Positions 5,189 to 41,872 of a stretch of 43,998 nucleotides of DNA are shown here, piece by piece (within the stretch, counting starts at the first letter, position 1; each line of letters begins with the position of its first letter). Made by a program: the position numbers and the translations under genes. The notes under the pieces were generated by a model that had not been told where the DNA came from, did no database searches, and saw nothing but the letters and a program-made list of their open reading frames with translations. Source of the stretch: Planctomycetota bacterium (GTDB lineage: Bacteria; Planctomycetota; J058); NCBI GenBank assembly GCA_050186825.1, contig JBFWYD010000031.1, positions 1-43,998 on the forward strand. Direction: 5' to 3'.

Positions 5189-6241
5189 TTAGCCGACCGA
5201 GGACGCCGCGAGGCTCTGGTGGCGCGAGCGGGTGTCGCGCGCCTTGGCCGCGGGCTGCTCGACCGGGGCCGGCTTGGCCGGGGCCGGCTTGGCGGGCGGC
5301 TCCGTGGCCGCCGGCTGCTGGTCCTCGGCCTCGCCGGTCGCGGCCTCGAGCTCGAGGTCCTCGAGCTCGTCCTCGTCGTCGTCGCCCTTCTTCCCGCCCT
5401 CGCGGCTGCGCTTGTTGTTCGCCTTGATCAGCTGCTGGGCCTTGTTGAAGGTGATCGGGGCCACGATCGGCTCGTGGCGCCCCTTGACGTGGATGTCCCC
5501 GAAGTGGACGCGGCCGATGTAGGTGTCGTTCTTGAGGATCCAGGAGACCCCCGCCCGCGACCACTGCTTGCTCCGCCGCGTCCTGAGGCCCTGCTCGTCG
5601 AGGAGCTTGATCAGCCGCTTCATGCTGCGCAGGCGCAGGTACTCGCGAAAGATCAGCTTGACGACCTCGGCCTCCACCTCGTCCGGCACCAACATCACGC
5701 CCTCGCTCGAGCGCTTGTCGTAGTCGCGCCGGTAGCCGTAGGGAGCGGGGCCGCTCTGGTGCTTGCCCTGGCGGGCCCCCTCCTCGCGACCCTTCAGCAG
5801 GCGCTGCGCGATCTCGCGCTTGCGCTCCACCTCGTCGCTCTTGCGCGCCGCGACCTTCTTCGGCTGGCGCGCCTTGTAGTCCTCGACGATCGCCCGGAGC
5901 TGGCGGGCCGTGTCGTCGTTGGCGACGAGCACCCGCTTCCCGGCGTTCCGCAGCTCCTCGACGGGGTCGAAGGTGAGCGTGCTGCACAGCCCGCGGAGGC
6001 GGCAGCCGGAGACGATCAAGACCGCCTCCCAGTCGCTCTCCTCCATGTCGTCCAGGATGTTGACGAGCCCTGCGCGGGTGTCCTGGGTGGGGGTCAACCC
6101 GTGGTCGGTGTGGACCTTCTCCAGCGCGAGCCCGGTGTGGGAGGCGAAGGCCTCCAGTCTTCGAGTCTGCTCCTCGAGCGAGGGGAAGCCCCCTTCCTCC
6201 TGCTCGAGGTAGCTGACTCGGGCGTAGGCGACGACCTTCAC
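5189..6241 (-). CDS. serine recombinase. It has a resolvase/invertase-type catalytic domain plus a large-serine-recombinase 'recombinase' domain, lacks the zinc-ribbon/coiled-coil tail, and ends in a Lys/Pro/Ala/Asp-Glu-rich C-terminus
   Basis: The N-terminus MKVVAYARVSYLEQ matches the YxRVS(T)xxQ catalytic serine motif, and the downstream R..L.......D.L.V...RL.R block is present (TRAGLVNILDDMEESDWEAVLIVSGCRLRG). The recombinase-domain signatures APYGYRRD and ILKNDTYIGR follow. The protein is 350 aa with an acidic/KPAPA tail. The GTG start lies 7 nt after the MamK-like gene's stop. Confidence 0.8.
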   Translation of the reverse strand: MKVVAYARVSYLEQEEGGFPSLEEQTRRLEAFASHTGLALEKVHTDHGLTPTQDTRAGLVNILDDMEESDWEAVLIVSGCRLRGLCSTLTFDPVEELRNAGKRVLVANDDTARQLRAIVEDYKARQPKKVAARKSDEVERKREIAQRLLKGREEGARQGKHQSGPAPYGYRRDYDKRSSEGVMLVPDEVEAEVVKLIFREYLRLRSMKRLIKLLDEQGLRTRRSKQWSRAGVSWILKNDTYIGRVHFGDIHVKGRHEPIVAPITFNKAQQLIKANNKRSREGGKKGDDDEDELEDLELEAATGEAEDQQPAATEPPAKPAPAKPAPVEQPAAKARDTRSRHQSLAASSVG

Positions 6242-6248
6242 CGGTCGG

Positions 6249-7337
6249 TTAGCGCAGCTGCTCCCAGGCCTCGACCGGCATGTCGTAGGCGATCTTGAGC
6301 GCCCCGTTCGCGCCGGCGTAGACGGGCTCCTGCACCGGACGGACCTTGCCGCCGCCGTAGCCCTGGAGCGCCTCCTCGAGCGCGCGGTCGAGGCCGTGGA
6401 TGCGGCTGCCGCCGCCGGCCAGGATCACGTTGTTGCGCAGGCGGTCCTGGAACTCGGGGTCGAAGGTCGAGATCAGGCGGTCGACGGCCTCGACGATCGG
6501 CTCGACGATCCGGCTGCAGCCCTTGCGGACCTCGGCGGTCACGTCGAAGGCCTTGGGGCGGCCGCGCACGGGGAAGGTGACCATCACGGGCTCGGCGGCC
6601 TCGGTCACGAAGGCGTGCTTCTCCTTGATCTCGCGCACCATGTTGATGTTGAAGCTGGCGTCGGGGCAGCGGCCCTTGAACAGCTCGAACAGCTGGTGGT
6701 CGATGAAGTCGCCGGCCTGGGTCAGCGTGACCTGGTCGTCCTCGTCGGGCATCGAGCCCTTCATCCGGCAGAGGTCGGTGGTCCCGGCGCCGATGTCGAT
6801 CACCAGGCAGTCGTGGAGCCGGTCCATCCCGTAGGCGACCGAGAAGGGCTCGCTGCAGATCACCACCGAGTCGAGCACCTCACGGGCGGCCTCGATGATC
6901 GACTGCTTGTTGTGGATCGAGGCCTGCGCGGGGCAGCCGATCACGCCGTAGACGAGCTGGCCGGGCTTGGGGCGGGCCAGGCTGACCGCGTGCTGGATCA
7001 GGGCGCGCGCGGCCTCGAGGTTGGCGCTCACGTCCTCGCTCGGGGCGCCGGTCGAGTCGGAGTGCTTGATCACGCCCTTCTCGAGCGGGCGGTAGAGGTC
7101 GAGGGCCAGGCGGTGCGCCATGGCGTCGTCCCCGAACAGCACGTCGCGCTGGAGCAGCTTGCGCGAGACCACGTCGCGCGGGTAGCCGACGATGCTGCTG
7201 ACCGTCTCCCGCACGCCGTTGCTGGCCGAGATCGAGGTCCGCGAGGTGCCGAGGTCGATGCCGACGTAGAGGATCGAGTCGCTCTCGCCCTTCCGGTAGT
7301 TCAGGCGGTCCTGCGCCGCGCTCTTCTGCTTCTCCAT
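6249..7337 (-). CDS. actin-fold ATPase, MamK-like (MreB/ParM/MamK superfamily)
   Basis: Actin-fold signature motifs appear in order: phosphate-1 VGIDLGTSRTSI, connect-1 GVIGCPAQAS, phosphate-2 LVIDIGAGTTDLC, and adenosine/connect-2 ILAGGGSRIHGLDRALEEAL. Local blocks (IVGYPRD, CSEPFSVAYGMDRL, DEDDQVTLTQAGDFIDHQL) resemble MamK more than MreB or ParM, as far as I can recall. The start is ATG 7337-7335 (M27 of the tracker ORF) with a GGGGGAAG RBS 6 nt upstream. Confidence 0.85.
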   Translation of the reverse strand: MEKQKSAAQDRLNYRKGESDSILYVGIDLGTSRTSISASNGVRETVSSIVGYPRDVVSRKLLQRDVLFGDDAMAHRLALDLYRPLEKGVIKHSDSTGAPSEDVSANLEAARALIQHAVSLARPKPGQLVYGVIGCPAQASIHNKQSIIEAAREVLDSVVICSEPFSVAYGMDRLHDCLVIDIGAGTTDLCRMKGSMPDEDDQVTLTQAGDFIDHQLFELFKGRCPDASFNINMVREIKEKHAFVTEAAEPVMVTFPVRGRPKAFDVTAEVRKGCSRIVEPIVEAVDRLISTFDPEFQDRLRNNVILAGGGSRIHGLDRALEEALQGYGGGKVRPVQEPVYAGANGALKIAYDMPVEAWEQLR

Positions 7338-7392
7338 GATGTCTTCCCCCTGGGTGTTCAGCTCTGTTGGGTTCGTCGTCGTCTCGTGCGGC

Positions 7393-8166
7393 CTACGCCC
7401 GACGGCGGAGGCCAAGGTTCTGGTCGATCAGTCCGTTGAGCAGGCCACCCCCCCGGCGGCGCGCTCCCGAATTCGTTCCCAGCCCGCTGGCGGCGGGCGG
7501 CGGCGGCGGCGGCTCAGGGACCGCCGCTGGCGCGGGCGGCGGCTCCGCCCCGCGCGGCTCGGCCGCGTGGGTCCGCCCCGCCGCGGTCGACTGGCCCGGG
7601 TTGCGGAGCTCCACGTTGGCCCGCACCAGGCCCGCCAGGAGGCCCCCGCCGCCGCGCGGCATGGGCCGCGTCGTGTGTCCCGCGCCCTGGCTGGGCGCGC
7701 CCAGGCCCGCGGGCCGGCTCGGCGCCGCAGCCAGCGGCGTCGCGGCGACCGGCGCAGCGGCGACCGGCCCGTGCCCGAGCGGCGCGGCGACCGGCCCGTG
7801 CCCGAGCGGCGCGGCGACCGGCCCGTGCCCGAGCGGCCCGGCGACCGGCGCCGCGGCGGCGCGCTCGAGCCGCGCGGCGGCGCGCTCGAGCCTGGCCGCG
7901 ACCGCGGCCAGGCCCTCGCGCTCGCTGGCGCGCTCGGCCAGGCGCGCCTGCGCCTCGGCCAGCCGCTGGGCCAGCGCGTCGCGCTCGGCGCGCAGCCGGT
8001 CCAGCTCCGCCTGCGTCGGGCCCCCGCGGAGCTCGGCGCGCAGGCGCGCCACCTCCTCGCGCAGCCGGTTCCGCTCCTCCGAGAGGCGGGCGATGATCTC
8101 CACCGCGGCCCGCGGCAAGTCGCGGGTGCGGGAGAGGATCGCGGGGCTGCGCTCGAGGGTGGCCAC
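7393..8166 (-). CDS. coiled-coil plus Ala/Pro-rich repeat protein (candidate filament-associated adaptor)
   Basis: A GTG start follows a GGAG that overlaps the upstream stop (TGAGGAGCGAACACGTG). The N-terminal ~110 aa form a heptad-like coiled coil (ERNRLREEVARLRAELR...LAEAQARLAERASEREGLAAVAARLERAAARLERAAA). Then come three tandem GHGPVAAPL repeats, an Ala/Pro linker, and two copies of a GGGLL.GL...N..LR motif. Only the 3' ~775 nt of the 509-aa tracker ORF look protein-like. Confidence 0.5.
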   Translation of the reverse strand: MATLERSPAILSRTRDLPRAAVEIIARLSEERNRLREEVARLRAELRGGPTQAELDRLRAERDALAQRLAEAQARLAERASEREGLAAVAARLERAAARLERAAAAPVAGPLGHGPVAAPLGHGPVAAPLGHGPVAAAPVAATPLAAAPSRPAGLGAPSQGAGHTTRPMPRGGGGLLAGLVRANVELRNPGQSTAAGRTHAAEPRGAEPPPAPAAVPEPPPPPPAASGLGTNSGARRRGGGLLNGLIDQNLGLRRRA

Positions 8167-9283: not shown

Positions 9284-9335
9284 CGGAAAATTCATGAGTC
9301 GGCTTGTGGGGGATTTCGAAAAAATCACGAGGCCG
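9284..9335. promoter_or_regulatory. AT-rich patch with the near-palindrome GATTTCGAAAAAATC, in the divergent promoter region between the coiled-coil/MamK-like operon (minus) and the ABC transporter operon (plus)
   Basis: This is the only markedly AT-rich 50 nt in a ~390-bp divergent intergenic region (ggaaaattcatgagtcggcttgtgggggatttcgaaaaaatcacgagg). The dyad symmetry suggests an operator or -10/-35 context. No convincing TTGACA/TATAAT pair could be assigned. Confidence 0.25.
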
Positions 9336-9615
9336 CTCCCAGAGCGGGTCCGCGCGCATCGCCGGGGCCTCGGGGCCGTCGCTTCGCCGCACAGGTCCTC
9401 CCCGCCAGGGCCCATCGCTCCGCCCCCGCGCGGGAGTCGATTGTTCAGGCGCATCCGACAGGGATGTGTGCAGTGTTCGGCCGACTGCACTGAGGCGACC
9501 GCCCATCGCCCTGGGCGCCGCTCGGCGCGCGGACCCACCCATCGCGGCGGGCGATGGGCGAAGGGCGCGGGTCGCCGCCGCCTGTGGGGACGACCCCAGG
9601 GAATAAGATCCCCGC

Positions 9616-11433
9616 GTGATCGAGGTCCAGGCCCTCACCCAGCGCTACGGGAGCTACGAGGCGGTCCGCGAGCTGAGCTTCGCCCTGGGCGCGGGGGAGG
9701 TGGTCGGCTTCCTCGGCCCCAACGGGGCGGGCAAGTCGACGACCCTCAAGGTGATCGCGAGCTTCCTGGCCCCGAGCGCCGGCCGGGTCAGCGTCGGGGG
9801 CTGCGACGTGGCCCGCGACCCCCTCGGGGTCCGGGCCCGGCTGGGCTACCTGCCCGAGCACTGCCCCCTCTACGAGGAGATGCTCGCGCGCGAGCTGCTC
9901 GACTTCGCCGCGCGCGTCCGCGGCCTGAGCCGCGCCGAGCGCGCCGCGGCCCGCGCGCGCGTGGTCGAGCGCTGCCGGCTGGAGGAGGTGATCGAGCGCC
10001 CGGTCAGCGACCTGAGCAAGGGCTACCGCCAGCGCCTCGGGCTGGCGACCGCCCTCCTGCACGACCCCCGGATCCTGGTCCTCGACGAGCCGACCAGCGG
10101 GCTGGACCCGAACCAGGTGCTCGAGATGCGTGCGCTCGTGCGCGAGCTGGGCCAGGAGCGCACGGTCCTGTTCAGCAGCCACGTGCTCTCCGAGGTCGAG
10201 GCCACCTGCGAGCGCGTGGTCGTGATCCACCGCGGCCGCCTGGTCGCGGACGACGCGGTGGCGAGCCTGGCGCGGCGGATCACCGGAGGGGCGCTCGACG
10301 TCCGTGGGGCGGAGGCCGAGGCGGTCGCAGGCGTCCCAGGCGTGGCCGAGGCCGTGGCGCTCGCCGACGGGCGGGTGCGCGCGCGGCCGCGGGCCGGCGT
10401 CGAGGACCTCGCGGCGCGGCTGTTCCGCTGGGCGGCCGGGAGCGGCCGGGTGCTCGTGGAGATAGCGCCGCAGCGGGTCACGCTCGAGGACGTGTTCGCG
10501 GCGCTGACCGCGGATTCGAAGGCGGTCGCTCCGCAGGCTACGGGATCAGGAGCCGCGGAGGCGGCTCTCCCTAGCGCGGCGCAGAGCCGCAGAGCCGCAG
10601 AGGGGCCCTCGCAGGAGCCGGCGCGCGACTCGGAGACGCCGGATTCGCAGGCGGCGGCTACCGAAGCGGGGGGGACAGGAGCTGCGAAGGCGTTGGATTT
10701 CAGCGCAGAGATCGCAGAGAGCGCGGAGATCGGTGGGTGTGAGCGAAGGCGCGGCTCCGATCCGTCGGGTGAAGGAGAGAAAACGAGGGAGAGAGACTCG
10801 GATTCGGATTCGGCTTCGGACTCCCCCCCGGCCTCGGATGCGACCCCTCGCTCACACCCCGCGATCTCCGCGATCTCTGCGATCTCTGCGCTGAATATCA
10901 ACGCTGTCGCACCCCCTCACGACCCCGAGCTCGCAGCCCGCTCCGGCTGTGAGTCTCCGGGCTCGGTCTCGGACTCGGACTCGGTCTCGGACTCGGACTC
11001 GGACTCGGACTCGGTCTCGGACTCGGTCTCGGTCTCGGACTCGGACTCGGCCTCGGCCTCGGCCTCGGCCTCGGACTCGGCCTCGGCCTCGGCCTCGGAC
11101 TCGGACTCGGTCTCCGCCTCGGACTCGGACTCGGACTCGGACTCGGACTCGGACTCGGACTCGGTCTCGGACTCGGACTCGGACTCGGACTCGGACTCGG
11201 ACTCGGACTCGGACTCGGACTCGCCCTCGGACTCGCCCTCGGACTCGGACTCGCGCCCTCGCTCACACCCACCGATCTCCGCGGACTCTGCGATCTCTGC
11301 GCTGAATAACAACGCTGTCGCACACCCTCGCGATCCCGACCTCGCAACTCGCCCCCGCTCAGAGTCTCCGGCCTCGGCCTCGGCCTCGGCCTCGGACTCG
11401 GACTCGGCTTCGGACCCGGAGCGCCCCACGTGA
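9616..11433 (+). CDS. ABC transporter ATP-binding protein (GldA-like; ABC-2/gliding-motility-associated type) carrying a ~300-aa low-complexity C-terminal extension encoded by a repeat element
   Basis: Walker [11 protein letters not shown]-loop, ABC signature LSKGYRQRL, Walker [13 protein letters not shown] and H-loop SSHVL are all present. The ATPase fold ends near LEDVFAALT (about nt 10530). The ORF then continues without a stop through an inverted-repeat element and (GACTCG)n arrays that encode (SD)n, up to TGA 11431-11433, which overlaps the GTG of the next gene. Confidence 0.8.
10540..11430. repeat. composite dispersed repeat (copy 1): unit A (~10540-10750), unit B (~10845-10975), (GACTCG)n-type hexanucleotide microsatellite arrays (~10958-11260 and ~11378-11425), and a second partial unit B (~11255-11385)
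   Basis: Near-identical sequence (>90% by eye) recurs at 17735-18400. Unit A is gcagaggggccctc...gattcgcaggcggcggct(a/g)ccgaagcggggg...gttggatttcagcgcagagatcgcagagagcgcggagatcg. Unit B is cgc(t/c)cacaccc(a/g)ccgatctccgcg.actctgcgatctctgcgctgaata(t/a)caacgctgtcgcac.ccctc.cgatccc and occurs 3 times in the window. The tcggactcggac tracts are directly visible. Confidence 0.9.
10699..10895. repeat. ~50-bp imperfect inverted repeats flanking a ~95-nt loop (potential large hairpin of the MITE/RPE type)
   Basis: The left arm (ttcagcgcagagatcgcagagagcgcggagatcggtgggtgtgagcgaagg) and right arm (cctcgctcacaccccgcgatctccgcgatctctgcgatctctgcgctgaa) are reverse complements with about 3 mismatches. The same architecture recurs at ~17897-18127. 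Confidence 0.8.
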
Positions 11434-13727
11434 GGGTCCCGCTGGCGATCGCGCGCCGCGAGCTAGGCGCCTTCTTCAAGCGACCCGCGGCCTGGGTGTT
11501 CCTGGCGGCCTTCCTGCTCGTGAGCACCGTGCTCGGGCTGCGCGGCTTCTTCGAGCGCGGGGTCTCGGACCTGCGCGACTACTTCCTCGGGCTGCGCTAC
11601 GCCTTCGTGCTGCTCGCGCCCGCGGCCGCCATGCGCCTGTGGGCCGAGGAGCGCCGGGCGCGGACCCTCGAGCTCCTGTTCTCGCTGCCCGTCTCGCCCG
11701 CGCAGGCCGTGCTCGGCAAGTACCTCGCCGGGGCCGCGGTGCTCCTGATCGCGCTCGCGCTCGGCGCGTGCCTCCCGCTGAGCCTCGCGCCCTACGCCAG
11801 CTTCGACGCGGGGCAGCTCGCGGCGGGCTACCTGGGCGCCTTCCTGGTCGCGGCCACCTACCTCGCGCTCGGGACCCTCGGCTCCGCGCTCAGCTCGAGC
11901 CAGGAGGTCGCCTTCCTGAGCGGAGCCCTGGCCTGCCTGCTGCTCAACCTGCTCGGCGACCCGCTCCTGACCGAGCGCGCGGCGGCCTACCTGCCCGAGC
12001 CCTGGGTGCGCGCCGCCGCGCGCTTCGCGGTGGGCGAGCACTTCGACGCCCTGACCCGCGGCGTGCTCGAGGCGCGCAGCCTGGCCTACTTCGGCGGCGT
12101 GAGCGCGCTGGCCCTGTTCCTGACCGTGCTCCTGGTCGAGCGCCGCTCGCGCGGGCGGGCCGAGGCCGCGCTGGCCGCCGTGCTGGCGCTCGCGGCGCTC
12201 GGGCTGTGGCTCGACCTCAGCGCGCAGCGCGCGCTCGCCGCGCGCGTCGACCTGACCGTCGAGCGGCGCAACTCGCTCGCGCCGCCGACCCGGGCGCTGC
12301 TCGCGCGCGTGCGCGACACCCTGGTGGTCCGGGCCTACCTCTCGCAGCACAAGCTGCCCGAGGCCACCCGGCCGGCCACGCGCCGGCTGCTCGACCTGCT
12401 CGAGGACCTCGAGGCCGCGGGCGGCGGTAAGGTCAAGCTCGAGGTCGTGGACCCGGTCACCCCCGAGCTCCAGGCGGCCGCCGAGCGCGAGGGCGTCGAG
12501 CGCTGCCAGTCGGAGATCGGCGGCGACCTGCGCACGCTCTACGCCGGCGTGGTCCTCTTCTACGGCGGGCGCCCCCCGGCCGCGATCCCGGTGGCGATCG
12601 ACCCGCGCCGCAACCTCGAGGTCGACCTCGCCCAGGCGATCCGCGGCCTGCTCACGCCGCGCCCGCGGGTCGGCGTGGCCGGGCTGGGCCGCGAGCAGTA
12701 CGAGGAGGCCCTGGCCCCGCTCCGCAAGGTGGCGACCGTCGAGGCGCTCGACCTCGCCCGGCTCAAGGCCGTCCCCGAGGGGATCGCGGCCCTGATCTAC
12801 ACCGCGCCCGTCCCCCCGCGCGAGCGCGAGGTCTACGTGCTCGACCAGTACCTCCAGCGCGGCGGGCGCCTGCTGCTCCTGCTCGAGGGCTACGGCCAGC
12901 CGCCCCAGGACCCCTGGCTGCGGCATCCCTTCGAGCTCGGCGCGCTCCAGCGCGCCCTCGAGGCCTGGGGCGTGCGCACGAGCCCCGCGCTCGTGGTCGC
13001 GGCCTCGCGCCGGACCTACACGATCCAGACCGAGCGCGGCCGCGTGCAGGCGGCCTACCCCTGGTTCCTGATCCCCACCCAGGGGACCCTCGGTCCGACC
13101 AACACCGCGGTGCTGCCCTTCGCGGTCGAGGTCGAGGCCCCGAAGGGCGAGGTCCTGCTCGCGACCGAGCCGGGCTGGGCGCTGCCCGGCCAGCAGCGGG
13201 TCGAGCCCACGCGCGCGCTCCAGCTCCCGGGCGACGAGCGCCGCCCGCGCGCGCTGGCGGTGGGCGTGCGCGGCGAACTCCTGAGCCCGTGGGCCGGCGG
13301 CCCGGGGCCGGTGCTCCTGCCCGAGGCCGAGGGCGGCGAGGACCCGCTCGCGATCCCGCTCGCGAAGCCCGCGGGCCCGGCCGCCCTGGCCGTGGTCGGC
13401 GACACCGACTTCCTGCGCCCGACCTTCGCCGCGCAGGGCCAGGCCGCCGCGCTCCTCCAGAACCTGGTCGAGTGGTGCCTCGACGACGGGGACCTGGCCC
13501 AGGTCCGCGCGCGGACCGCGCCGCCCGCCCTCAGCCAGGTGCCCGAGTCCGGGGTCGATCGGCGCGAGCTCTGGGCCTGGCGCTGGAACCTCGGCCTGGC
13601 CGCGCTAGTGCTCGCGGGCGGGCTGAGCTGGCTGGCCGCGCGGCGCGTGCGCCGCGATCGGGCCGCCAGCGCGCAGCGCGCGCGCCTCGCGCCACGCCCA
13701 GCGCCCCGGACCGGGGAGGCGGCGTGA
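11430..13727 (+). CDS. fusion of an ABC-2 family permease (GldF-like, N-terminal ~240 aa with 6 TM) and a GldG-like ABC-transporter auxiliary component (C-terminal ~520 aa with N- and C-terminal TM anchors)
   Basis: N-terminus [21 protein letters not shown]... with multiple hydrophobic helices, typical of an ABC-2 permease. It is followed by a TM anchor ([15 protein letters not shown]) and a long soluble domain, with a terminal anchor ([21 protein letters not shown]), as in GldG/ABC_transp_aux proteins. It sits immediately downstream of the ATPase with a 4-nt GTGA overlap. Confidence 0.75.
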
Positions 13728-16486: not shown

Positions 16487-18429
16487 GTGCCCCGCTTCGT
16501 CCCCTGCCGGATCAGCCACCTCCTCGGCGAGCTGAGCGCGCTCCTGACCGAGCGCGACCGCGGGGCCTTCTACGCGCTGGCGCGCATCGTCGAGGCCTAC
16601 TACCACCACGCCGCCGGCGCCCAGACGCGCATGGCGGAGGAGCTCTACGCGCCCTTCGACCCCGACAGCGAGACCGTCCCGACCGTGGCCCCGCTCGGGG
16701 CCGACCCGGTCGGGCGGCTCTACGGCTGGCTGGACGGGCTGTTCGAGCGGGCCAACTTCGAGCGCGTCTCCCAGGACACGCTCCTCTCCGAGGCCGACCA
16801 GGAGGTGCTGACCACCTTCGAGATCGACCCCGACCTGCGCTCGGTCGAGCGCCTGGCCGTCTACGTGCGCGGGAGCGGGACCAAGGCCGTGCGCCTGCGC
16901 AAGGCCAAGGCCTTCTTCCGGCTCGAGGAGGCGGAGCAGCCCACCTACCGCCGCGTGGCGATCGTGGTCCGCACCGCGCACGACCCCTACGTGCTCCTGA
17001 AGATGTTCAAGGACGTGCCGCGCACCGACGTGGAGCTGCTGCTGCCCACCGTGCGCGTGAAGATGAAGCTCCTCGACAAGCTCAAGCTCTCGGGCACGGG
17101 CGGCGCCGCGGCGCTCTCGACCTGGAAGGTGCTCCGCCTCGCCTACACCTACGCGCCCACCATCACCAAGCTCCTGGCCGTCCCCTTCAAGCTGTTCCTG
17201 CTCCCGATCGCCTTCCTTGTCACGGCCTTCTACGGCGGCAAGACGGTCCTCGACTACGCCAAGATCCGCAGCAGCTACGTGACCGCGCTCGCCGAGCACC
17301 TCTACTCCATCACCCTCGCGAGCAACCGCGCCGTGCTCGGCCGCCTCGCCGCGCAGGCCGGCGAGGAGGACACCAAGGAGGCGCTGATCGCCTACGCGCT
17401 GCTGCTCGGCGCCCCCGAGGGGCTCTCCGCCGCCGCCCTGCGCGAGGCCGCCGAGGCCCTGGTCTGGGACCGCTACCGCGCGCGCGTCCGCTTCGACGTG
17501 GAGGACGCCCTGCGGAAGCTGAGCGAGCTCGAGCTGATCGAGCCGCTCGACGAGCAGCCAGGTGGCCCCGTGGCGCGCGCGGTCGACCTCGACGAGGCCC
17601 TTCGCCGCGTGGACAAGTCCTGGGACGACCTCTACAGCCCGCCGCCCCGCGAGACGCGGCTCTGGCGGCTGCTGCGGCGGAAGGAGCTCGCCGCGGGGGA
17701 GACTGCCGATTCGGAGGCGGTGACTGGCGAGGCGGAGGGATCAGGAGCTGCAGGGGCGGTTCAGCCCAGCGCAGCGGCGCAGAGGCGCGGAGACGCAGAG
17801 GGGCCCTCTCTGGAGCAGGCGCGCGACTCGGAGACGCCGGATTCGCAGGCGGCGGCTGCCGAAGCGGGGGGAACAGGAGCTGCGCAGGCGTTGGATTTCA
17901 GCGCAGAGATCGCAGAGAGCGCGGAGATCGCCAGGAGTGAGCGGAGGGGGGGCTCCGCAGCCCAGTCGGATCGGGACGAACGGACGGGCACGGGCACGGG
18001 CACGGGCACGGGCACGGGCATCCCAATGTCGAACTCGGACTCGGACTCGGACTCGCCCTCGGACTCGAAGTCGCGCCCTCGCCCACACCCACCGATCTCC
18101 GCGAACTCTGCGATCTCTGCGCTGAATAACAACGCTGTCGCACACCCTCGCGATCCCGGCCTCGCAACTCGCCCCGGCTCAGAGTCTCCGGCTTCGGCTT
18201 CGGACTCGGCCTCGGCCTCGGCCTCGGACTCGGACTCGGACTCGGTCCCGGACTCGGATTCGGATTCGGATTCGGATTCGGATTCGGCCTCGGCCTCGGC
18301 CTCGGACTCGGACTCGGACTCGGACTCGGACTCGGATTCGGATTCGGATTCGGACTCGGCCTCGAACTCGGACCCTGAAGCCGCGTCGGAAGACCCTGAC
18401 GACGTGCGGCCGATCCGGACGGTGCCGAG

Positions 18430-18433
<4 letters not shown>
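16487..18433 (+). CDS. DUF3754-like (TMEM143-like) membrane-associated protein. The core ends near nt 17700 and is followed by a ~240-aa low-complexity tail encoded by the second copy of the dispersed repeat
   Basis: The core of ~400 aa has a conserved-looking central hydrophobic hairpin (LLAVPFKLFLLPIAFLVTAFYGGKTVLDYAKIRSSYVTALAEHLYSITLASNRAVLGRL). The family call is from recollection only. The ORF continues stop-free through unit A, (GGGCAC)6 encoding TGTGTG, unit B and (GACTCG)n encoding (SD)n, to TGA 18431-18433, which overlaps the TTG start of the downstream kinase. Confidence 0.55.
17735..18400. repeat. composite dispersed repeat (copy 2): unit A (~17735-17950), inverted-repeat arms (~17897-17940 and ~18076-18127), (GGGCAC)6 (~17985-18020), unit B (~18073-18200), and a (GACTCG)n-type array (~18190-18370)
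   Basis: Direct nucleotide comparison with 10540-11430; the reading frame relative to the element is the same as in copy 1. Confidence 0.9.
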
Positions 18434-21621
<3,188 letters not shown>

Positions 21622-28880: not shown

Positions 28881-30407
28881 TCACCTCCCCGGCGGAGCGG
28901 CGAGGACGGCGGGGCGGCCGGTGACCAGGGCGTAGGTCCAGGGGTCGGCGAGGTGGGGCTCGCCCGGGAGGGCCTGGGTCGGGCACTCGGGCTCGCGCGT
29001 GCGACCGCGCATGCTGCGGCCGGCGGCGTGGCCGAGGACGGCGAGCCAGGCGCCGAGGAGCGCGGCGAGCAGCCAGCGTTGGGTGGGAGCGTGGCGGCGC
29101 CAGCGGACCAGGAGCTCGACGGCGGCGAGGGGGGCGAGGGCGCTGAGCGGCGCGATCGTGAAGCGCGTCGGGTCGTCGGTGGACCAGACCACGATCGTGG
29201 CGGCTGCGAGGCCCGCGGCGGCGAGGGCGAGCAGGCGACCGGCCGGGGCGCGCAGCGAGAGCAGGGCCAGGGGCAGGACCAGGAAGGCGTTCTTGGGCAG
29301 GAGGGCCGCCTCGAGCTGGTGCGCGAGGTTGCGCGCGATGCCCGCGAGGATCTGGGCCAGGCCCGCGGGCGGGGCGCTGCGCGCGGGGTCCATCAGGTCC
29401 TCGTAGCGCGCGGCGCGCAGCAGGTCGAGCTGCGGGGCGAGCACGCCGGTCGCGGCGCAGAGCGCGGCGTTGAGCGCGGCGAGGAGCGCGAGCAGCGCGA
29501 GCGCACGGCGGCGCCGGCCGCCCGCCCAGTGCCAGAGCACGAGCAGCGGGACCAGCACCCAGGCCTCGGGACGCGCGAAGCGGGCCAGGCCGGCGCAGAG
29601 GGCCTCGCCGAGGAGCGTGCCCCGACCGGCCGGGTCGAGCTCTCCCTGCCAGGCGAGGCGGAGGGCGGCGAGGACGAGCACCAGCCCCAGCGGCTCGGCC
29701 CAGAGGTGCACCGAGGCGCGGACCAGGAAGGGCAACCAGGCGACGGTCAGCCCTCCGAGCAGGGAGCACATGACCAAGGGAGCGCCGCGCAGACCGCGGC
29801 GCCGCGCGAGCTCGCCGCCGAGCGAGGCCGCGAGGACGGCGGCGAGCGCGGCCAGAGCCACGCCGCTGAGCTGGAGCGCGGCCGGTGGCCAGCCCGGCTC
29901 CGGGCGGACCAGGGGCGCGAGCAGCCACGGGTAGAGGGGAGCGCGCTCGCCGTAGGCCTCGTGGACGGCCGGAGCCTGCACGTCCGCGGCCTGGAAGCGG
30001 ACGCGGATCGGCAGGACGAAGCCCTCACCGGCGCGCAGCGAGCGCGCGATCAACAGGTTCTCGGCCGCATCGGGGCTGTGGTGGAAGTCGCGCAGGGCAG
30101 GCTCGAGGCGCGGGAGGACCGCGAGCACCGCGACCAGGAGCGCGAGCGCGATCCTCGGCAGGAGCCCAGGTCCATCCCGCGACACGGCCGCGAAGTCACG
30201 CGACCTCGACGCGGCCGCGGAGTCGCTCGACCTCGACACGGCCGCGAAGTCACGCGACCTCGACGCGACCGTGCTCTCACTCGACCTCGACGCGGCCGCG
30301 GAGTCGCTCGGCCTCGACGCGACCGTGCTCTCACTCGACCTCGACGCGGCCGCGGACTCGCTCGGCCTCGGAGACGCACGCGCGGGCTCGGGGATCGGGC
30401 TCGACAC
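28881..30407 (-). CDS. polytopic membrane glycosyltransferase-like protein (GT39/PMT_2/ArnT-like) with an N-terminal Ser-rich tandem 9-aa repeat region
   Basis: The C-terminal ~440 aa are extremely hydrophobic with at least 9 predicted TM helices. The first-loop motif is LRDFHHSPDAAENLLIARSLRAGEGFVL, resembling the D-E/A-A...Y/L loop of PMT_2/ArnT proteins. The start is assigned to GTG 30407-30405, 8 nt after the DUF58 stop, which places the 27-bp x7 repeat in-frame. An alternative start lies near 30193, after the repeat. The upstream 324 codons of the tracker ORF are Arg/Pro junk antisense to the DUF58 gene. Confidence 0.5.
   Translation of the reverse strand: MSSPIPEPARASPRPSESAAASRSSESTVASRPSDSAAASRSSESTVASRSRDFAAVSRSSDSAAASRSRDFAAVSRDGPGLLPRIALALLVAVLAVLPRLEPALRDFHHSPDAAENLLIARSLRAGEGFVLPIRVRFQAADVQAPAVHEAYGERAPLYPWLLAPLVRPEPGWPPAALQLSGVALAALAAVLAASLGGELARRRGLRGAPLVMCSLLGGLTVAWLPFLVRASVHLWAEPLGLVLVLAALRLAWQGELDPAGRGTLLGEALCAGLARFARPEAWVLVPLLVLWHWAGGRRRRALALLALLAALNAALCAATGVLAPQLDLLRAARYEDLMDPARSAPPAGLAQILAGIARNLAHQLEAALLPKNAFLVLPLALLSLRAPAGRLLALAAAGLAAATIVVWSTDDPTRFTIAPLSALAPLAAVELLVRWRRHAPTQRWLLAALLGAWLAVLGHAAGRSMRGRTREPECPTQALPGEPHLADPWTYALVTGRPAVLAAPPGR
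30184..30372. repeat. 27-bp tandem repeat x7 (minisatellite; consensus approximately gcggccgcggagtcgctcgacctcgac, alternating with the variants acggccgcgaagtcacgcgacctcgac and gcgaccgtgctctcactcgacctcgac)
   Basis: Seven contiguous 27-nt units are read directly. The period is divisible by 3. In the minus gene frame they encode 9-aa units (SRSSESTVA, SRPSDSAAA, SRSRDFAAV). Confidence 0.9.
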
Positions 30408-34950: not shown

Positions 34951-35010
34951 GCCCCGGCTGACCACCATGGCCCCCGTGCGAACGCGTCCGCGGAGCCCCG
35001 AGGTCGGCCG

Positions 35011-36540
35011 GTGAGCCAGGAGCTGCCAGGCATCCCGCTCGAGGTGCTGGAGCGAATCGGCGCGGGCGGGATGGGCGAGGTCTACCGCGCCCGCGACGCG
35101 CAGGGCCGCGCGCTCGCGCTCAAGCTCCTGCTGCGCGGGCAGGGCGAGGGCGACCCGACCGTGCGCCGACGCCGCTTCGAGCGCGAGGCCGCGGCCCTCG
35201 AGCGCGTCCAGCACCCCAACGTCGTCGGCGTGGTCGCGCGCGGCGACTCTCCTCGCGGCCCCTGGCTGGCCATGCCCTTCCTCGAGGGCGAGCCGCTCGA
35301 GGCCAAGCTCCCGCTCCCGATCCCCGCCGCGCTCGAGCTCGCGCTCCAGCTCGGCGCGGGGCTCCGGGCCGCGCACGCGGTGGGCGTCCTGCACCGCGAC
35401 CTCAAGCCGGACAACGTCGTGGTGTGTCGGGACGGGCGCTACGTGCTCGTGGACTTCGGGCTGACCAAGGACGTCGAGGGCCAGGGTCAGTCCGGGACCC
35501 TGACCCGCACCGGGATGCTCCAGGGCACGCCCGGCTACTGGGCGCCCGAGCAGGCCGCGGGCGAGGGGCGACGCGTGAGCGTCGAGACCGACGTCTACGG
35601 CTACGGCGCGACGCTCTACGCGGCGCTGACCGGCGTCCCGCCGGCCGACGGTCAGACCCTGCTCGAGCTGCTGGTCGCGACCCAGGAGCGACCGCCGCGG
35701 GCGCCGCGCGAGCTGCGCCCCGAGGTCCCCGCCTGGCTCGAGGCCTTCGTGCTCCGCTGCCTGGAGAAGAGCCCGAGCGCGCGCTACCCGAGCATGGAGG
35801 CCGCCCTGGAGGCGCTCCACGCGGGGATCGCGGGGCAGGCGCCCACCTGGCGCTGCTCAGGCTGCGGCGAGCCGCCCCGCGGCGGGGTCACGCCGCTCGT
35901 CTGCGTGTGCGGCAAGCAGTACCACCCGCTCTGCCTGCGCACCCAGCCCTGCGCGACCCCCGGCTGCGGAGGCGGCGGTCGCGCCAGCGGACGGGCGAGC
36001 CCCGGCCCCGGCCTGGTGGTGGACCCCGAGCCCGAGCCCCAGGAGCGCGCGCCCTCGCCGCTCCGGCGTCTGTTCGCCAACCCCGAGCGGGTCCAGACCG
36101 CGGTCTTCCTCTCGGCGATCGCCCTCGGCACCCTCCCCGGCCTGGCGCTCCTCCACGCCCACTGGGGCGCCAGCGCGGGCGGCGCCGAGCTCCGCGAGGC
36201 CGCGACGTTCCTCGCCGTCGGCGCCGTCGCGGGCGGGGTCCTGGCGGTGATCGCCCTGGCCGCCCTGGAGTGGCTCGGCGACCTGGTCCGCCAGCGCGAC
36301 GACCCCAAGATCCGCCTGACCTGCCTGACGATCCTGGGGAGCGCCCTCCTGGCCAGCGCCCTGGTCGCGGGCGAGAGCTGGCAGGCAGGCCGCAGCCCCA
36401 CTCAGGTGCTGGTGGTCGGGGTGCTCAGCTTCGTGGGCACCTTCGTGCTCGTGGGCCTGTTCATGGTCAGCGTCGTCGGCCAGGCGCTGGTCGCGCTGGT
36501 CGAGGCGCTGCGGGCGCTGCTCCGGGGCCGACGGCGCTGA
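35011..36540 (+). CDS. Hanks-type Ser/Thr kinase with a C-terminal Cys-cluster (zinc-ribbon-like) and a polytopic TM tail
   Basis: Kinase motifs: GAGGMGEVY, LALKLL, HRDLKPDN, DFGLTKD, GTPGYWAPEQ, DVYGYGATLY. Then WRCSGCGEPPRGGVTPLVCVCGKQYHPLC...CATPGCGGGG, and then 3-4 hydrophobic helices. Confidence 0.8.
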   Translation: MSQELPGIPLEVLERIGAGGMGEVYRARDAQGRALALKLLLRGQGEGDPTVRRRRFEREAAALERVQHPNVVGVVARGDSPRGPWLAMPFLEGEPLEAKLPLPIPAALELALQLGAGLRAAHAVGVLHRDLKPDNVVVCRDGRYVLVDFGLTKDVEGQGQSGTLTRTGMLQGTPGYWAPEQAAGEGRRVSVETDVYGYGATLYAALTGVPPADGQTLLELLVATQERPPRAPRELRPEVPAWLEAFVLRCLEKSPSARYPSMEAALEALHAGIAGQAPTWRCSGCGEPPRGGVTPLVCVCGKQYHPLCLRTQPCATPGCGGGGRASGRASPGPGLVVDPEPEPQERAPSPLRRLFANPERVQTAVFLSAIALGTLPGLALLHAHWGASAGGAELREAATFLAVGAVAGGVLAVIALAALEWLGDLVRQRDDPKIRLTCLTILGSALLASALVAGESWQAGRSPTQVLVVGVLSFVGTFVLVGLFMVSVVGQALVALVEALRALLRGRRR

Positions 36541-36693: not shown

Positions 36694-39600
36694 CTACGGC
36701 GCGCCGCGGCGGAGGCGCAGCCCGAGCAGGGCCGCGAACACCAGCAGCAGGCTGAGCGGGGCGCCGCCCTCGCCGCCACTCCCCAGGCTGTCCGTCTCGA
36801 GGCTGCAGAGGCCGGTGGTGTGGCTGCCGCCGCCCGAGGACGCGCTGGGCGCGGCCGTCGAGCCCGGGGCCGTGGTGCCGACGCTGCTCGTCACGGGCGA
36901 AGCGGTCGAGCCGGTCCCGGTGCCGCCGCCGGGGGCGGGGGCGCCGGGGACGCGGGTCACGCCGAAGGTCTTGGCGATCCGGTTCAGCTCGTTGCCCGCG
37001 TAGTCGCGCGGCGCGTCGCGGAAGTAGAGGACGAAGCGCACCTCGCCGCTGGCGGCCGGGTACTCGTCGCCGCCGAGCGGCAGCGCGTCCTGGTTGGTCA
37101 GGGTCAGCACCGAGGACTTGATCCCCGGCTGGTCGCCCCAGCCGCTGCCGGTGGTGGGCACGAGCGTGCTCACCGGGCTGCCGAGGAGCGAGTCGCCGCT
37201 GGCGTCGAGGGCCTGGACCTCGAGCGCGTAGGCGCGGGCGTCCATGCTCACGTCGAAGCGGAAGGTGACCGTCATGGCGCCCGCCGGGAGCACGCCGTTG
37301 ACCGCCGCGCCCGCGTCGACGGTCACGTCGTAGGGCACGCAGAAGATCGGGTTGGTCCAGCAGCGGAAGGCGTCGGGGCCGAGGTCCATCTGGTCCGGGT
37401 TGCCGCGCGTGTAGGCGCCGAGCGCCAGGGCCGTGTTCTTGGTGATCGGGCCCTCCTTCGCGGCGTCCAGGGCGTGCTCGTGCCAGGTCCCCGCGCCGTT
37501 GAGCGAGAGCTCGTTGACGCCGGTGATCTGGTCGTAGCTGGAGAGGCCCGCGAAGCCGCTCGGCCGGTTGCGCGCCGGGTTCCGGTTGCCCGCCTCGGTC
37601 TTGTAGAGCAGCAGCGAGGCGATCGGGCCGAACTCGGCGTTGCTCGTGTAGTAGTAGCGGAAGGTCGGGGCCAGCGAGCCGCGCTCGACCAGCGCCGTGA
37701 AGCCGCCGTCGAGCGGGCCGGCGCCCCCGATCCGCCCGTCCGGGTCCTCGACGCGCCGGGCCTGGTCGTGCCAGCGCAGGTTCGCGCCGTCGAAGCGCGG
37801 CTCGGCGTCGAGCTCGAAGGTGGCCAGCGGGCCGTCGGTGGTCACCGAGTTGCCGTCGGCGTAGGCCGCGAACCAGCGGTCGCCCGCGCTCGCGCCCGGC
37901 TTGCCGTCGCCGAAGCAGTAGGTGCGGACCTTGTACCAGGCCTCGTCGCCCACGTTGTAGGTCATCTGGAGGCTGAGCGGCGTGGCCGCGCGCCCGACCG
38001 AGAAGTTGAAGTCACCGTGCGCGTCGGAGCCGCCGGCCTGGTAGAGCTTGCGGATGAAGCGGACCTCGGGGTCGCTCACGAAGCTGTAGTCGAGCGTCTT
38101 GCTGAGCGCCTCGTGCCAGAGGGTCATGCCGTCCCACAGGCCCTTGTCCCAGTCGTCCGAGCCGCGCTGGAAGTCGGGGTCGGTCCACGGGTTCAGGTCG
38201 TTGAAGTCGATCTGGCTGGTCGGCAGCGAGCGCGTCCCGCGCCCGTTGAAGAACTCGAGGCCCTTGATCACGAACTCGTTGCTCTGGTCGTGGACCTCGT
38301 CGCGCGTGCGCAGGGCGGGGTCGAGGCCGAAGGCCCGCTCGTAGTTGGCGGGGTTCCAGCCCTGGCCGCTGTAGGGATGGGCGGCGTAGGCGAAGCTCTC
38401 GCCCTGGGTCGCCTGGCGGTTCTTGGCCACGTCGTTGAGCAGCGGGAACAGGTCGACGTTGATGTTCGGGTTGCCCGGCCCCTTCAGCCAGCCGCCGCCG
38501 TGCCACGGGCCCTCCACGTGGTCGGCGTTGTAGAGCAGCATGTGCGCGCCGAGCGGGATCCCGGGGAGCAGGTTGAGGATCTTGTTCAGGAAGGGGATCC
38601 GCGGGAGCGGCACGTCCTGCTTGAAGGCCACCTCCTCGTTGGCGGTCTTGCCGAAGATCGTCCGGAAGGCGTCGAGCTGGGTGGTCCCGGGCTGCGCCCC
38701 GACCGACTGCGGGCCGAAGGGCGGGCGGTGGTCCGCGCCGTCGGGGTCGGGGATCGTGCGGTTGTTGAAGGACGAGTGGTCCGTCGTGATGATCTTCATG
38801 TAGGCGTCGGCGGCCGTGGGGCCGGGGGTGATCCCCAGCGACCAGGCCGTCTCGAAGACCATCTGCAGCGGGCCGCCGTAGGCCTTGCGCGGCGCGAAGA
38901 TGTCCAGCGGCGAGCCGAAGTACCACTCCGCGATCGTGTGGTGATGCACGTCGTGGTAGTGGTTGTCGCCGGGCAGCTCGGGCAGGTCGTCGGCCGCGAA
39001 GTGGACCTTCATCACCCCGCGGTGGTGCCCGTTGCTCGTCTTGCTGAACACCCACAGCACCACCCGGTGCTGCTCCCACTCCATGTCCATCTCGACGTAC
39101 TTGTCGACGCCGGGCGCGGGCGTCGCCGCGACGCCGAAGGCAGCGCGCGGCATGTGGAAGATCTCGTGCCGGCCGTTCTGGTCGAGGTCCTGGCCGCCGA
39201 ACAGGTCGAGGCCGCTCCCGCGCAGGTTGCCCCGCTCGTCGGCGATCTCGAGCCCGGCGGGGGCGGTGGGCGCCGCGCCGTGGGTGTCGGTGTAGAGGTT
39301 CTGCCAGGGGCCCGTGGCCGCGTCACCGACTGCGATCGTCGTGCGCGCCACGCGCAGCTTGGTGGTGTTGGTCCGCCCGCCCTTGCTGGGGACGAACACC
39401 TGGAGCGGCACGTAGGGCCGGTTGGGCGCCACCCGCCAGGGCGCGTCGTGGATCACGTCCACGCCGTTGCTCTGCTGGTAGAGCCCGTGCAGCGTGGTCT
39501 GGGTGCCGACCAGGAAGTCCAGGAAGGCGGTGTTGTCGAAGACCACCTGCTCGCCCGCGAGCGGGGTCGCGTGCACGCGCAGCCGCTGGATCGCGACCGG

Positions 39601-41616: not shown

Positions 41617-41671
41617 GACGACCTCTCTCCTCGACCGGCGCGCAGAGCGCCCGCACCCACCACCCGCTTGC

Positions 41672-41690
41672 GAGCAAACGGTCGTCCGAT
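41672..41690 (-). promoter_or_regulatory. sigma-54-like promoter candidate (minus strand cGGacgaccgtTTGCt, GG-N10-GC spacing) ~55 nt upstream of the S8 peptidase ATG
   Basis: The -12 element TTGCT matches the consensus. The -24 element is only a partial match (cGGACG versus TGGCAC). The spacing is correct. Confidence 0.2.
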
Positions 41691-41872
41691 GCGGACGCTG
41701 ATTGGCGGATTCGCGTGGCCGGTGAAGACGCAGTAAATACAATCCCGCGAGAGGCTTGTAAACGGGAATCCCACCCCGGGTCCGCGGGGTCCCCGATCCT
41801 GGTCACCCGATTTCGGGAAATCCCGACGCCACCAGGACTCGCCGCGCTGCGTCACTCGTGGGGCCTGGACGG

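Follow-up and report, generated by a model that had tools for sequence, protein, structure and literature searches.

The Ser-Asp-rich tail of 307 amino acids carried by an ABC transporter ATPase most probably arises because a composite repeat specific to this lineage is translated by default; the tail would not be a domain that evolved together with the ATPase. We assign this reading a probability of about 0.7. The best reading of the repeat itself is that it is ORF-compatible, either selfish or structural, and it would be analogous to the Rickettsia RPEs and the mycobacterial MIRUs. The element combines a left flank, a long and imperfect palindrome whose arms measure ~95 nt, and hexamer tracts of the GACTCG type at the palindrome centre and the right end. 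It lies in frame between the last conserved residue of the ATPase and the gene's final codons. We infer that the element is mobile, that the tail is translated and that the tracts vary in length. All positions given below refer to the window, which is the whole stretch of 43,998 nucleotides that was analysed.

The ATPase gene and the layout of its tail

The ORF at 9616 to 11433 of the forward strand begins with GTG, encodes 605 amino acids and contains no internal stop. Residues 1-298 (9616 to 10509, forward strand) form a GldA-like ABC transporter ATP-binding domain, as indicated by Pfam, NCBIfam, codon-position GC content and AlphaFold2. The Pfam ABC_tran model matched residues 18-161 of the 605-residue ORF (E=3.6e-27). 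The NCBIfam GldA model TIGR03522 scored 286.3 bits and aligned end to end, with residues 2-298 matching positions 3-301 of the 301 in the model. The domain therefore ends with LEDVFAALT at nt 10509; the preliminary description had recognized the same final residues but placed them near nt 10530, about 20 nt too far downstream. The GC content at the three codon positions (GC1/2/3) of the domain is 0.81/0.50/0.98, and AlphaFold2 gave a pLDDT of ~90 for residues 1-301 of the 605-residue product.

The gene directly downstream (11430 to 13727, forward strand; GC1/2/3 of 0.81/0.53/0.98) encodes a fusion of a GldF-like ABC-2 permease with an auxiliary domain that is GldG-like, based on the Pfam families ABC2_membrane_3, DUF7088 and ABC_transp_aux. 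GldA and GldF of Bacteroidota are the best NCBIfam matches in this operon and the two genes stand in the corresponding order. However, the scores are well below the curated equivalog cutoffs for GldA (286.3 against 402.6 bits), for GldF (127.6 against 288.5 bits) and for GldG, a weak match (39.3 against 389.85 bits). In addition, the GldF-like and GldG-like parts are fused here in one ORF of 765 amino acids, and the lineage is not Bacteroidota. Judged from these profile scores, "GldA-like" is a fair name for the ATPase, but "GldA" is not.

Past residue 298 the ORF continues for 307 stop-free codons in frame with the ATPase, in agreement with the approximately 300 codons first described. All parts of this tail are on the forward strand. 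The left part of the element (10510 to 10666) begins where homology to the second copy starts and where the orthologs end, and Tandem Repeats Finder (TRF) detected a run of the 8-mer CGCAGAGC at 10580-10602. Palindrome arm A (10667 to 10760) is supported by the inverted repeats I1/I2, the count of a 34-mer and RNA folding. A central spacer (10761 to 10833), defined by sequence and composition, follows and contains a short GAYTCG proto-microsatellite at about 10790-10830. The same site holds three units in the copy at L008 and (ACGGGC)6 plus (TCGGAC)6.5 in the second copy of the window. Arm A' and a right-hand segment (10834 to 10957) were identified from the inverted repeats, the 34-mer count, copy comparison and consensus pairing. 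The main (TCGGAC)n hexanucleotide microsatellite (10958 to 11253; 49.3 units, TRF score 445, 90% matches) is read as SD, SV, SA and SP, and its units include 31 CGGACT, 7 CGGTCT and 7 CGGCCT. A second arm A' with its right-hand segment (11245 to 11368) was found as the direct repeat D2 (10795-11009 and 11206-11420), and it shares 96.6% identity with arm A' in the 17705-18430 element. A terminal (TCGGCC/TCGGAC) microsatellite of 8.7 units by TRF (11369 to 11420) precedes the last codons and the TGA stop of the extended ORF (11421 to 11433; sequence and ORF list).

The tail contains about 49, 9 and 4 hexamers of the TCGGAC type, whose codons TCG GAC are consistent with GAY-TCN. The estimate of about 60 Ser-X dipeptides built from GAC and TCG codons was accurate, since 60 in-frame S[D/V/A/P] dipeptides were counted, in runs of 5, 48 and 7. 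The whole tail holds 39 SD, 22 SA, 7 SV and 5 SP, and its 307 residues include 85 Ser (28%), 53 Ala, 48 Asp (16%) and 25 Pro. A flexible, low-complexity tail had been proposed, and AlphaFold2 agreed with this, giving a pLDDT below 50 and no secondary structure for residues 302-605.

The microsatellite in the tail is far beyond chance expectation. The openness of the remaining sequence is only mildly unusual and is not rare by chance: in dinucleotide-preserving shuffles the probability of finding no stop in the non-microsatellite parts was 0.07 in the ATPase tail and 0.17 in the second copy. The Ser-Asp frame is the sole forward frame of the hexamer with a GC3 of 1.0. Two other interpretations of the tract were rejected. 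The minus-strand ORF at 10917-11429 (SESE...) was not accepted as a hidden gene, as it owes its high GC3 solely to the hexamer. A phase-variation switch, as in a simple-sequence contingency locus, does not fit the repeat period of 6 reported by TRF; with this period slippage alters only the length of the tract and never shifts the frame, as had been anticipated.

Unrelated host genes and orthologs lacking the element

One line of evidence against an evolved tail of the ATPase is that the element also occurs elsewhere. The body of a DUF3754/TMEM143-family gene (16487 to 17704, forward strand; Pfam DUF3754 and 42 homologs) is unrelated to the ATPase, and a second copy of the element is fused to it in the same frame, 7 kb downstream of the ATPase tail. 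This second composite element (17705 to 18373, forward strand; copy alignment and TRF) consists of the left part, arm A, the (ACGGGC)6 and (TCGGAC)6.5 tracts, arm A' and (TCGGAY/TCGGCC)29. It is followed by the 3' end of the extended DUF3754 ORF (18374 to 18433, forward strand), whose TGA overlaps the TTG start of a Ser/Thr kinase gene by 4 nt, as seen from the ORFs and the Pfam match of the kinase; the extended protein is 648 amino acids long. The two copies in the window are ~85% identical outside the microsatellites. A 34-mer from the arm occurs five times in the window against none expected, and the two composite copies together hold five arms.

When 1.84 billion representative proteins were scanned exhaustively with HMMER, only two further proteins with the element were identified, both from Planctomycetota MAG assemblies. 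Four hosts are thus known, an ABC ATPase, a DUF3754 protein, a C39 peptidase and a ketoacyl-synthase-like protein; three of the copies are available as DNA (two in the window and one in L008) and P0173 as protein only. In P0172 the palindrome core (GC3 0.77) is flanked in frame by an N-terminal domain (GC3 0.97) on one side and by a Peptidase_C39_2 domain (GC3 0.98) on the other. The frame in use is the only stop-free frame of the core, and the sequence ahead of the catalytic Cys in the C39 domain has no in-frame start codon. Each element has one stop-free frame, and in all copies seen it is this frame that is fused to the host ORF, although for the two MAG copies this agreement is subject to ascertainment bias because both were found by a protein query in that frame.

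The orthologs of the window genes lack the element. The best homologs of the ATPase (66% and 63% identity; 333 and 344 amino acids) have no tail, and the closest stops 8 residues past LEDVFAALT. Likewise, all 42 homologs of the DUF3754 protein are 380-445 amino acids long, and the closest ends with ...RLLRREEDEAG, at the point where the element starts. The element was missing from all recovered homologs of both genes.

At both loci the stop of the extended ORF overlaps the next start by 4 nt, as GTGA at 11430-11433 for the permease and as TTGA at 18430-18433 for the kinase, and each of these starts is the sole in-frame candidate near the onset of the conserved region of the downstream gene. 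A GGAG motif lies 8 nt upstream of the permease GTG. In the element-free ortholog operon L010 the ATPase and permease genes likewise overlap by 4 nt. From the in-frame position of the element it follows that the ancestral stop was displaced 921 nt downstream, and at that point the TGA retains a 4-nt overlap with the permease GTG.

These observations also bear on the view that the tail is an artefact of assembly or sequencing, in which the ATPase truly stops after its domain and the apparent read-through was created by an erroneous indel, or by a repeat that was collapsed or misjoined. The stop in the closest ortholog agrees with this view, and assemblies are prone to errors at long microsatellites and at dispersed repeats. 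However, stop loss or frame restoration would be needed alike at two separate loci, both extended ORFs finish exactly on the next gene's start codon, and an independent assembly also has the element in frame, inside a two-domain gene. We therefore regard an artefact as highly improbable. It had been suggested that orthologs with a stop immediately after the ATPase domain would point to a sequencing error; such a stop does exist, 8 residues past LEDVFAALT, but this does not make the read-through a sequencing error, because the in-frame fusion recurs at the second locus of the window and genes of an independently assembled genome also contain the element in frame.

Other searches returned no further copies. 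Neither a scan of genome contigs for an exact 30-mer of the arm nor a scan of metagenome contigs for a 33-mer gave a match. A 21-mer of the arm had five short matches (21-31 nt) in genome contigs, in Nitrospira and Acidobacteriota MAGs, which are not the element. A degenerate peptide pattern matched 379 times in metagenome contigs, with none confirmed. The non-repeat part of the tail gave no match in a word-indexed search of proteins, and the two MAG proteins came only from HMMER. A blastn search against plasmids found nothing, and a PDB sequence search with P0172 for the two-domain architecture without the insert gave no useful match. No terminal inverted repeats were found beyond the palindrome itself. 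No target-site duplication was visible at three junction pairs, where the flanks are too diverged from the ortholog DNA (L006 and L007) for breakpoints to be placed.

Conservation of the palindrome as nucleic acid

The palindrome arms are 94 nt long and 80-87% complementary, with 77 consensus pairs, and would form a stem of ~90 bp. RNA folding gave z-scores of -9.9 for the ATPase copy and -5.7 for the second copy. About 50 central pairs do not vary among the three DNA copies, and seven pairs have changed on both sides. A 14-residue peptide is identical in all four host proteins, but it is encoded by the palindrome stem, and the stretch that encodes it is identical in the three DNA copies at every nucleotide, synonymous sites included. 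The palindrome core does not differ among copies. Mismatches between copies at the three codon positions number 13/11/15, 4/7/5 and 7/6/6, so that there is no third-position excess. The non-microsatellite part of the tail has a flat GC1/2/3 of 0.68/0.67/0.71, and the flanking genes have a GC3 of 0.98. Outside the microsatellites the composition of the element is of the intergenic type, a non-coding signature. From the sequence comparison, conservation appears to act on the palindrome as nucleic acid and not on the peptide.

These results bear on the idea that the Ser-Asp tail is an exapted functional appendage, that is, a flexible acidic regulator, phosphorylatable or cation-binding, and possibly a substrate of a neighbouring kinase. 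Several features are consistent with it. First, there is no in-frame stop, and the tail should be made. Secondly, the tail is rich in Ser and Asp and predicted to be disordered. Third, the hexamer has a GC3 of 1.0 in the frame used, as in a selected coding frame. The shared peptide would also fit, as would the presence of Ser/Thr kinases, which had been noted nearby; at least two such genes are encoded in the window (18430-21621 and 34951-36540), the first directly 3' of the second copy. However, the shared peptide is the palindrome stem itself, the substitutions between copies show no codon-position bias, the composition is intergenic-like, the element is attached to functionally unrelated proteins, and no recovered ortholog of either window gene carries it. 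We consider a functional appendage quite unlikely, and the earlier proposal of an evolved, phosphorylatable ATPase tail was not sustained, given the copy on DUF3754, the absence from homologs, the composition and the lack of a third-position excess.

Another reading is that the element is primarily an RNA or DNA device acting between cistrons, for example a hairpin for mRNA processing or stability, or one that sets the ratio of upstream to downstream expression, with translation being incidental. The long stem with its strongly negative z-scores, the conservation of the stem with some double changes, and the position of both window copies exactly at junctions of co-oriented genes are consistent with such a role. 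However, the MAG copy is within a single gene, at a domain linker and not at a junction. Rfam gave no match in a search of the whole window, and a scan of 9300-11700 found no terminator-like or promoter-like site inside the tail. Scans for tRNA and tmRNA found nothing. This role is unlikely as the explanation of the tail, and it overlaps and is compatible with the default translation of a repeat.

Under default translation of the repeat, in-frame copies would be the ones retained, while copies out of frame would truncate the host and uncouple or frameshift the downstream gene, and would probably be purged. The hexamer tracts would then lengthen and shorten by slippage while keeping the frame. 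A seed of 2-3 units, which is the state of the MAG copy, may have grown in this way to the 49 units seen here and produced the Ser-Asp, Ser-Ala and Ser-Val runs. The gene would then encode an ABC ATPase whose C-terminal appendage is disordered, acidic and probably tolerated. A bolder proposal is that the Planctomycetota have a family of palindromic mobile elements, active, so far undescribed and compatible with ORFs, to which the element belongs. Such elements would persist by being translated, land at gene ends and linkers, keep the -4 coupling and seed in-frame-expanding tracts that become long, acidic and disordered Ser-Asp tails and linkers in unrelated proteins, some perhaps exapted, e.g. 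as substrates of the abundant Ser/Thr kinases. We view this as unlikely.

Comparison with known repeat systems

In-frame fusions of MITE-like repeats are known from the RPEs (PMC10969869) and also from intragenic ERIC and BOX elements. The element described here is similar in that it is a dispersed palindrome with one open frame, found in frame in unrelated genes and absent from the orthologs of the window genes, and the peptide segment that it contributes falls at tolerant sites such as termini and linkers. It differs in its lineage, which is Planctomycetota-like with ~75% GC, and in having no sequence relationship to these repeats. It is also larger (a ~300-nt palindrome, or 0.7-0.9 kb with the tracts), contains expanding hexanucleotide microsatellites and is known from four copies.

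The MIRUs provide a parallel for the junctions, because the open frame of the repeat has a -4 overlap with the downstream start, and variable copy number is also a feature of MIRUs (PMC12548453). As in MIRUs, the repeat lies at junctions of co-oriented genes with a -4 stop/start overlap that should preserve translational coupling. However, the tandem unit of a MIRU is 40-100 bp long and has a small ORF of its own, which also overlaps the upstream stop. The repeat described here has a unit of 6 nt, its frame continues that of the upstream gene without an intervening stop, a long palindrome is present and one copy is intragenic.

If the default-translation reading is correct, the RPE/MIRU type of phenomenon extends to a very GC-rich Planctomycetota-like lineage, beyond its classic hosts. 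A palindrome with a period-6 microsatellite could then add hundreds of disordered residues while leaving the frame and the coupling to the next gene intact. This would offer a tractable case of the de novo birth of intrinsically disordered tails, and the tract would be a likely length-polymorphic marker. Annotation pipelines will list an "ABC ATPase" of 605 residues and a "DUF3754 protein" of 648 residues with unusual Ser-Asp tails, which are best taken as element-derived extensions and not as new domain architectures.

The tail had also been compared with the staphylococcal Sdr/Clf repeats. The Sdr/Clf repeats belong to adhesins that are secreted and LPXTG-anchored, are built from an 18-nt unit (GAYTCNGAYTCNGAYAGY) that ends in AGY, and are glycosylated by SdgA/SdgB; the R region sits between the ligand-binding domains and the LPXTG wall anchor. 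The comparison holds for the long Ser-Asp runs encoded by GAY-TCN codons and for a repeat number that is likely variable. It does not extend further, as the tail forms the C-terminus, on the cytoplasmic side, of a nucleotide-binding ABC protein, has a 6-nt unit with many SA, SV and SP variants in place of the 18-nt unit, and ends with ...SDPERPT, with no LPXTG, signal peptide or anchor. An Sdr-like wall-spanning stalk was rejected for this reason, since the host is a cytoplasmic nucleotide-binding domain lacking an anchor. A GT87-family protein (42834-43997), positionally unrelated to the tail, was the sole glycosyltransferase seen in the window.

The ATPase gene and its extension

The ORF at 9616-11433 (plus strand) contains 605 open codons from a GTG start, and an ABC nucleotide-binding domain makes up its residues 1-298 (Pfam ABC_tran, E = 3.6e-27). 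GldA was the best NCBIfam model and aligned end to end (residues 2-298 with model positions 3-301 of 301), but the score of 286 bits was below the cutoff of 402.6. Thus, "GldA-like", the label used in the preliminary description, is accurate; LEDVFAALT (nt 10509) closes the domain. The gene that follows (11430-13727) encodes a GldF-like ABC-2 permease with a fused GldG-like auxiliary domain (Pfam, NCBIfam) in a single 765-aa ORF. The GldF-like and GldG-like parts are two genes (253 and 533 aa) in L010, an ortholog operon without the element, and appear split or frameshifted in L006, an ortholog contig (ORFs 4823-5788 and 5595-7244).

After residue 298 the ORF continues for 307 codons, which bears out the Ser-X tail of about 300 codons noted earlier. 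Ser makes up 28% of the tail, Ala 17% and Asp 16%. Its hexamers form three groups: a short one at about 10790-10830 and two period-6 arrays, at 10958-11253 (49.3 units, 90% matches) and 11369-11420 (8.7 units). In frame they encode 60 S[D/V/A/P] dipeptides, grouped 5 + 48 + 7. AlphaFold2 predicted residues 1-301 with a pLDDT of about 90 and residues 302-605 with a pLDDT below 50 and without secondary structure. Tail homologs were absent from the alignment, so the low pLDDT fits a disordered tail without establishing one. We consider this tail to be the probable read-through (roughly 70%, judged from sequence comparison) of a new, lineage-restricted palindrome-plus-hexamer repeat.

A composite repeat in frame with its host genes

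The element consists of a left part (L), palindrome arms A and A', a right segment and hexamer tracts. In the ATPase tail, arm A (10667-10760) is the inverted complement of the first arm A' (10834-10927; 94 nt, 80% complementary), and a second A' lies at 11245-11322. An arm 34-mer occurred five times in the window and never in 100 shuffles; two of the five matches are at 17897-18126, inside a second copy of the whole composite (17705-18430). Copy 2 contains L, arm A, an (ACGGGC)6 + (TCGGAC)6.5 spacer, arm A', the right segment and a 29-unit TCGGAY/TCGGCC array. It is joined, in the same element frame as copy 1, to the 3' end of an unrelated DUF3754/TMEM143-family gene (16487-18433), whose protein is lengthened by about 240 residues (17705-18433); (ACGGGC)6 at 17984-18020 encodes a (Thr-Gly)6 run. 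Without microsatellites the copies are about 85% identical. The A' at 11245-11371 shares 96.6% identity with the copy-2 A' but only 85% with its neighbour (10834-10960), which points to a recent exchange of sequence between the two loci. Neither a target-site duplication nor a cognate transposase was seen; at the element junctions the flanks are too diverged from the orthologs to place breakpoints.

Orthologs lack the extension. In a search of 5.8 billion proteins the best ATPase homologs (66% and 63% identity, 333-344 aa) all lacked the tail. The closest ortholog stops 8 aa past the point where the element begins in the window, with the conserved permease start within about 100 nt on its contig, and a 4-nt overlap joins the ATPase and permease genes of L010. 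All 42 of 42 DUF3754 homologs are 380-445 aa long, and those with named sources are all from Planctomycetota, which points to that phylum for the window as well. The nearest of them (75% identity) has the C-terminus ...RLWRLLRREEDEAG-stop; the window gene runs ...RLWRLLRRKELAAGET and then into the element. The preliminary description had held that a stop right after the domain, in orthologs and on re-sequencing, would make the read-through a sequencing error. Orthologs do stop there, but sequence comparison indicates an insertion in the window gene rather than an error, since two loci carry the fusion and an independent assembly has the element in frame within genes. An assembly artefact is likewise unlikely, given this recurrence.

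A word-indexed protein search with the non-repeat tail as query gave no match. An exhaustive HMMER scan of 1.84 billion representatives identified exactly two proteins, P0172 and P0173, both annotated from the same Planctomycetota MAG assemblies; the query was in this frame, so their agreement in frame is biased by ascertainment. P0173 (364 aa) begins with ketoacyl-synthase-like sequence, after which come L, arm A, a Gly-Thr run and SD/SV repeats. In P0172 (429 aa) the palindrome core (arm A, SDSDS, arm A') occupies residues ~148-248, between an N-terminal domain and a Peptidase_C39_2 domain. The P0172 gene, on locus L008 (GCA_050250455.1, contig JBFWOT010000017.1), holds the insert at 10442-10744 and brings the copies known as DNA to three. 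No in-frame start codon precedes the C39 catalytic Cys in L008; thus, on sequence grounds, this copy is a genuine in-frame insertion within one gene, at the linker between two domains. Its hexamer tracts have only 2-3 units, which looks like an unexpanded state.

Pattern scans did not find the element in GTDB species-representative genomes or JGI metagenome contigs, nor did blastn find it in plasmids. An arm 21-mer, TTCAGCGCAGAGATCGCAGAG, was found exactly in five unrelated MAG contigs (Nitrospira, Acidobacteriota), with about 0.3 expected by chance in 596 Gb: L001 3157-3195, L004 4990-5028, L002 7612-7644, L005 896-928 and L003 2760-2781. The L005 match belongs to a small palindrome, and further CGCAGAG-type 9-mers, in AT-rich DNA, come after the L002 and L005 matches. 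The 21-mer could be a short repeat motif of wide distribution or a low-complexity coincidence.

Peptide or nucleic acid

True genes of the window have an extreme codon-position GC structure (GC1/GC2/GC3 of 0.81/0.50/0.98 in the ATPase, 0.81/0.53/0.98 in the permease and 0.73/0.45/0.99 in DUF3754). The non-microsatellite tail gave 0.68/0.67/0.71 in copy 1 and 0.68/0.68/0.74 in copy 2, and its overall GC of about 0.69 is near that of the intergenic DNA upstream of the ATPase gene. For L008 the values were 0.79/0.55/0.97 in the N-terminal domain, 0.67/0.68/0.77 in the insert and 0.81/0.54/0.98 in the C39 domain. Read as TCG-GAC the hexamer has a GC3 of 1.0, a one-in-three chance set by the element's own register. 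Mismatches between copies are even over the three codon positions (13/11/15, 4/7/5 and 7/6/6), and nothing in them indicates purifying selection on a tail peptide. In every copy, L008 included, the frame in use is the only stop-free one of six; by shuffling, an equally long open frame is only mildly unlikely (P = 0.07 for copy 1, 0.17 for copy 2).

A 14-residue stretch is identical in all four host proteins and at every nucleotide in the three DNA copies, and it coincides with the palindrome stem. Folded as RNA, the palindrome of copy 1 gave -181 kcal/mol (z = -9.9) and that of copy 2 a z of -5.7. A consensus fold of the three cores has 77 pairs, about 50 of them central and invariant and 7 changed on both sides with pairing kept; with three sequences this is weak evidence for stem conservation. 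Taken together, this suggests constraint on the palindrome as nucleic acid rather than on the peptide. The whole window was scanned against Rfam, with no match.

These results bear on the proposal that the tail is a functional, phosphorylatable appendage of the ATPase. Ser/Thr kinase genes, noted earlier, do lie at 18430 and 34951, but the proposal found no positive support and is improbable: the same element is on the unrelated DUF3754 gene, orthologs do without the tail, composition and codon-position mismatches are not coding-like, and conservation is at the nucleic-acid level. A role of the hairpin at the RNA level is somewhat less doubtful, though still unlikely; it would fit alongside read-through of a repeat, but the intragenic MAG copy speaks against a purely intercistronic device.

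Gene junctions and proposed origin

Two genes carry the element in frame at their 3' ends, and a third has it internally, also in frame. The TGA of the ATPase ORF overlaps the permease start (GTGA, 11430-11433, with GGAG 8 nt upstream), and that of the DUF3754 ORF overlaps the start of the Ser/Thr kinase gene (TTGA, 18430-18433). GTG 11430 and TTG 18430 are the sole in-frame start candidates near the beginning of the downstream conserved regions.

We propose that transposition or recombination spreads or copies the element, and that within coding DNA the only copies to persist would be those in the stop-free frame at sites that tolerate them, for example variable C-terminal tails and linkers. 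Where the element sits at an operon junction, read-through would hold termination beside the downstream start and so keep translational coupling. The long hairpin would be melted by translating ribosomes, and period-6 slippage could lengthen the tracts at no penalty. On this view the 605-aa ATPase, acidic disordered tail included, would be a tolerated by-product. There are parallels: in-frame fusions are known for Rickettsia palindromic elements and other MITE-like repeats (PMC10969869), as for the window element, and the -4 coupled ORF of MIRUs, which insert at start codons (PMC12548453), resembles the TGA/start overlaps here. The element is best explained as a new repeat of a known class, the ORF-compatible bacterial repeats.

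Several other features were observed. A segment of 87 nt (41979-42065), beyond the annotated end of a subtilase-like gene (36697-41802, minus strand), shares 84% identity with intergenic MAG DNA on the opposite strand (L008 12552-12636). It was ruled out as a tRNA and looks like another dispersed repeat with a ~9-nt periodic GAACGCCAAG/ACGCGAAG pattern. A large serine recombinase gene (5192-6424, minus strand; Pfam Resolvase + Recombinase) may be a sign of an integrated mobile element near the window's left part. Tandem repeats are present at 7757-7849 (27-nt unit, 3.4 copies, 98% identity) and 30180-30370 (27/54/81-nt array, about 7 units). Lastly, an MreB/actin-like gene lies at 6249-7427 (minus strand), and an ankyrin-repeat protein with a DUF1963 domain is encoded at 339-2243.
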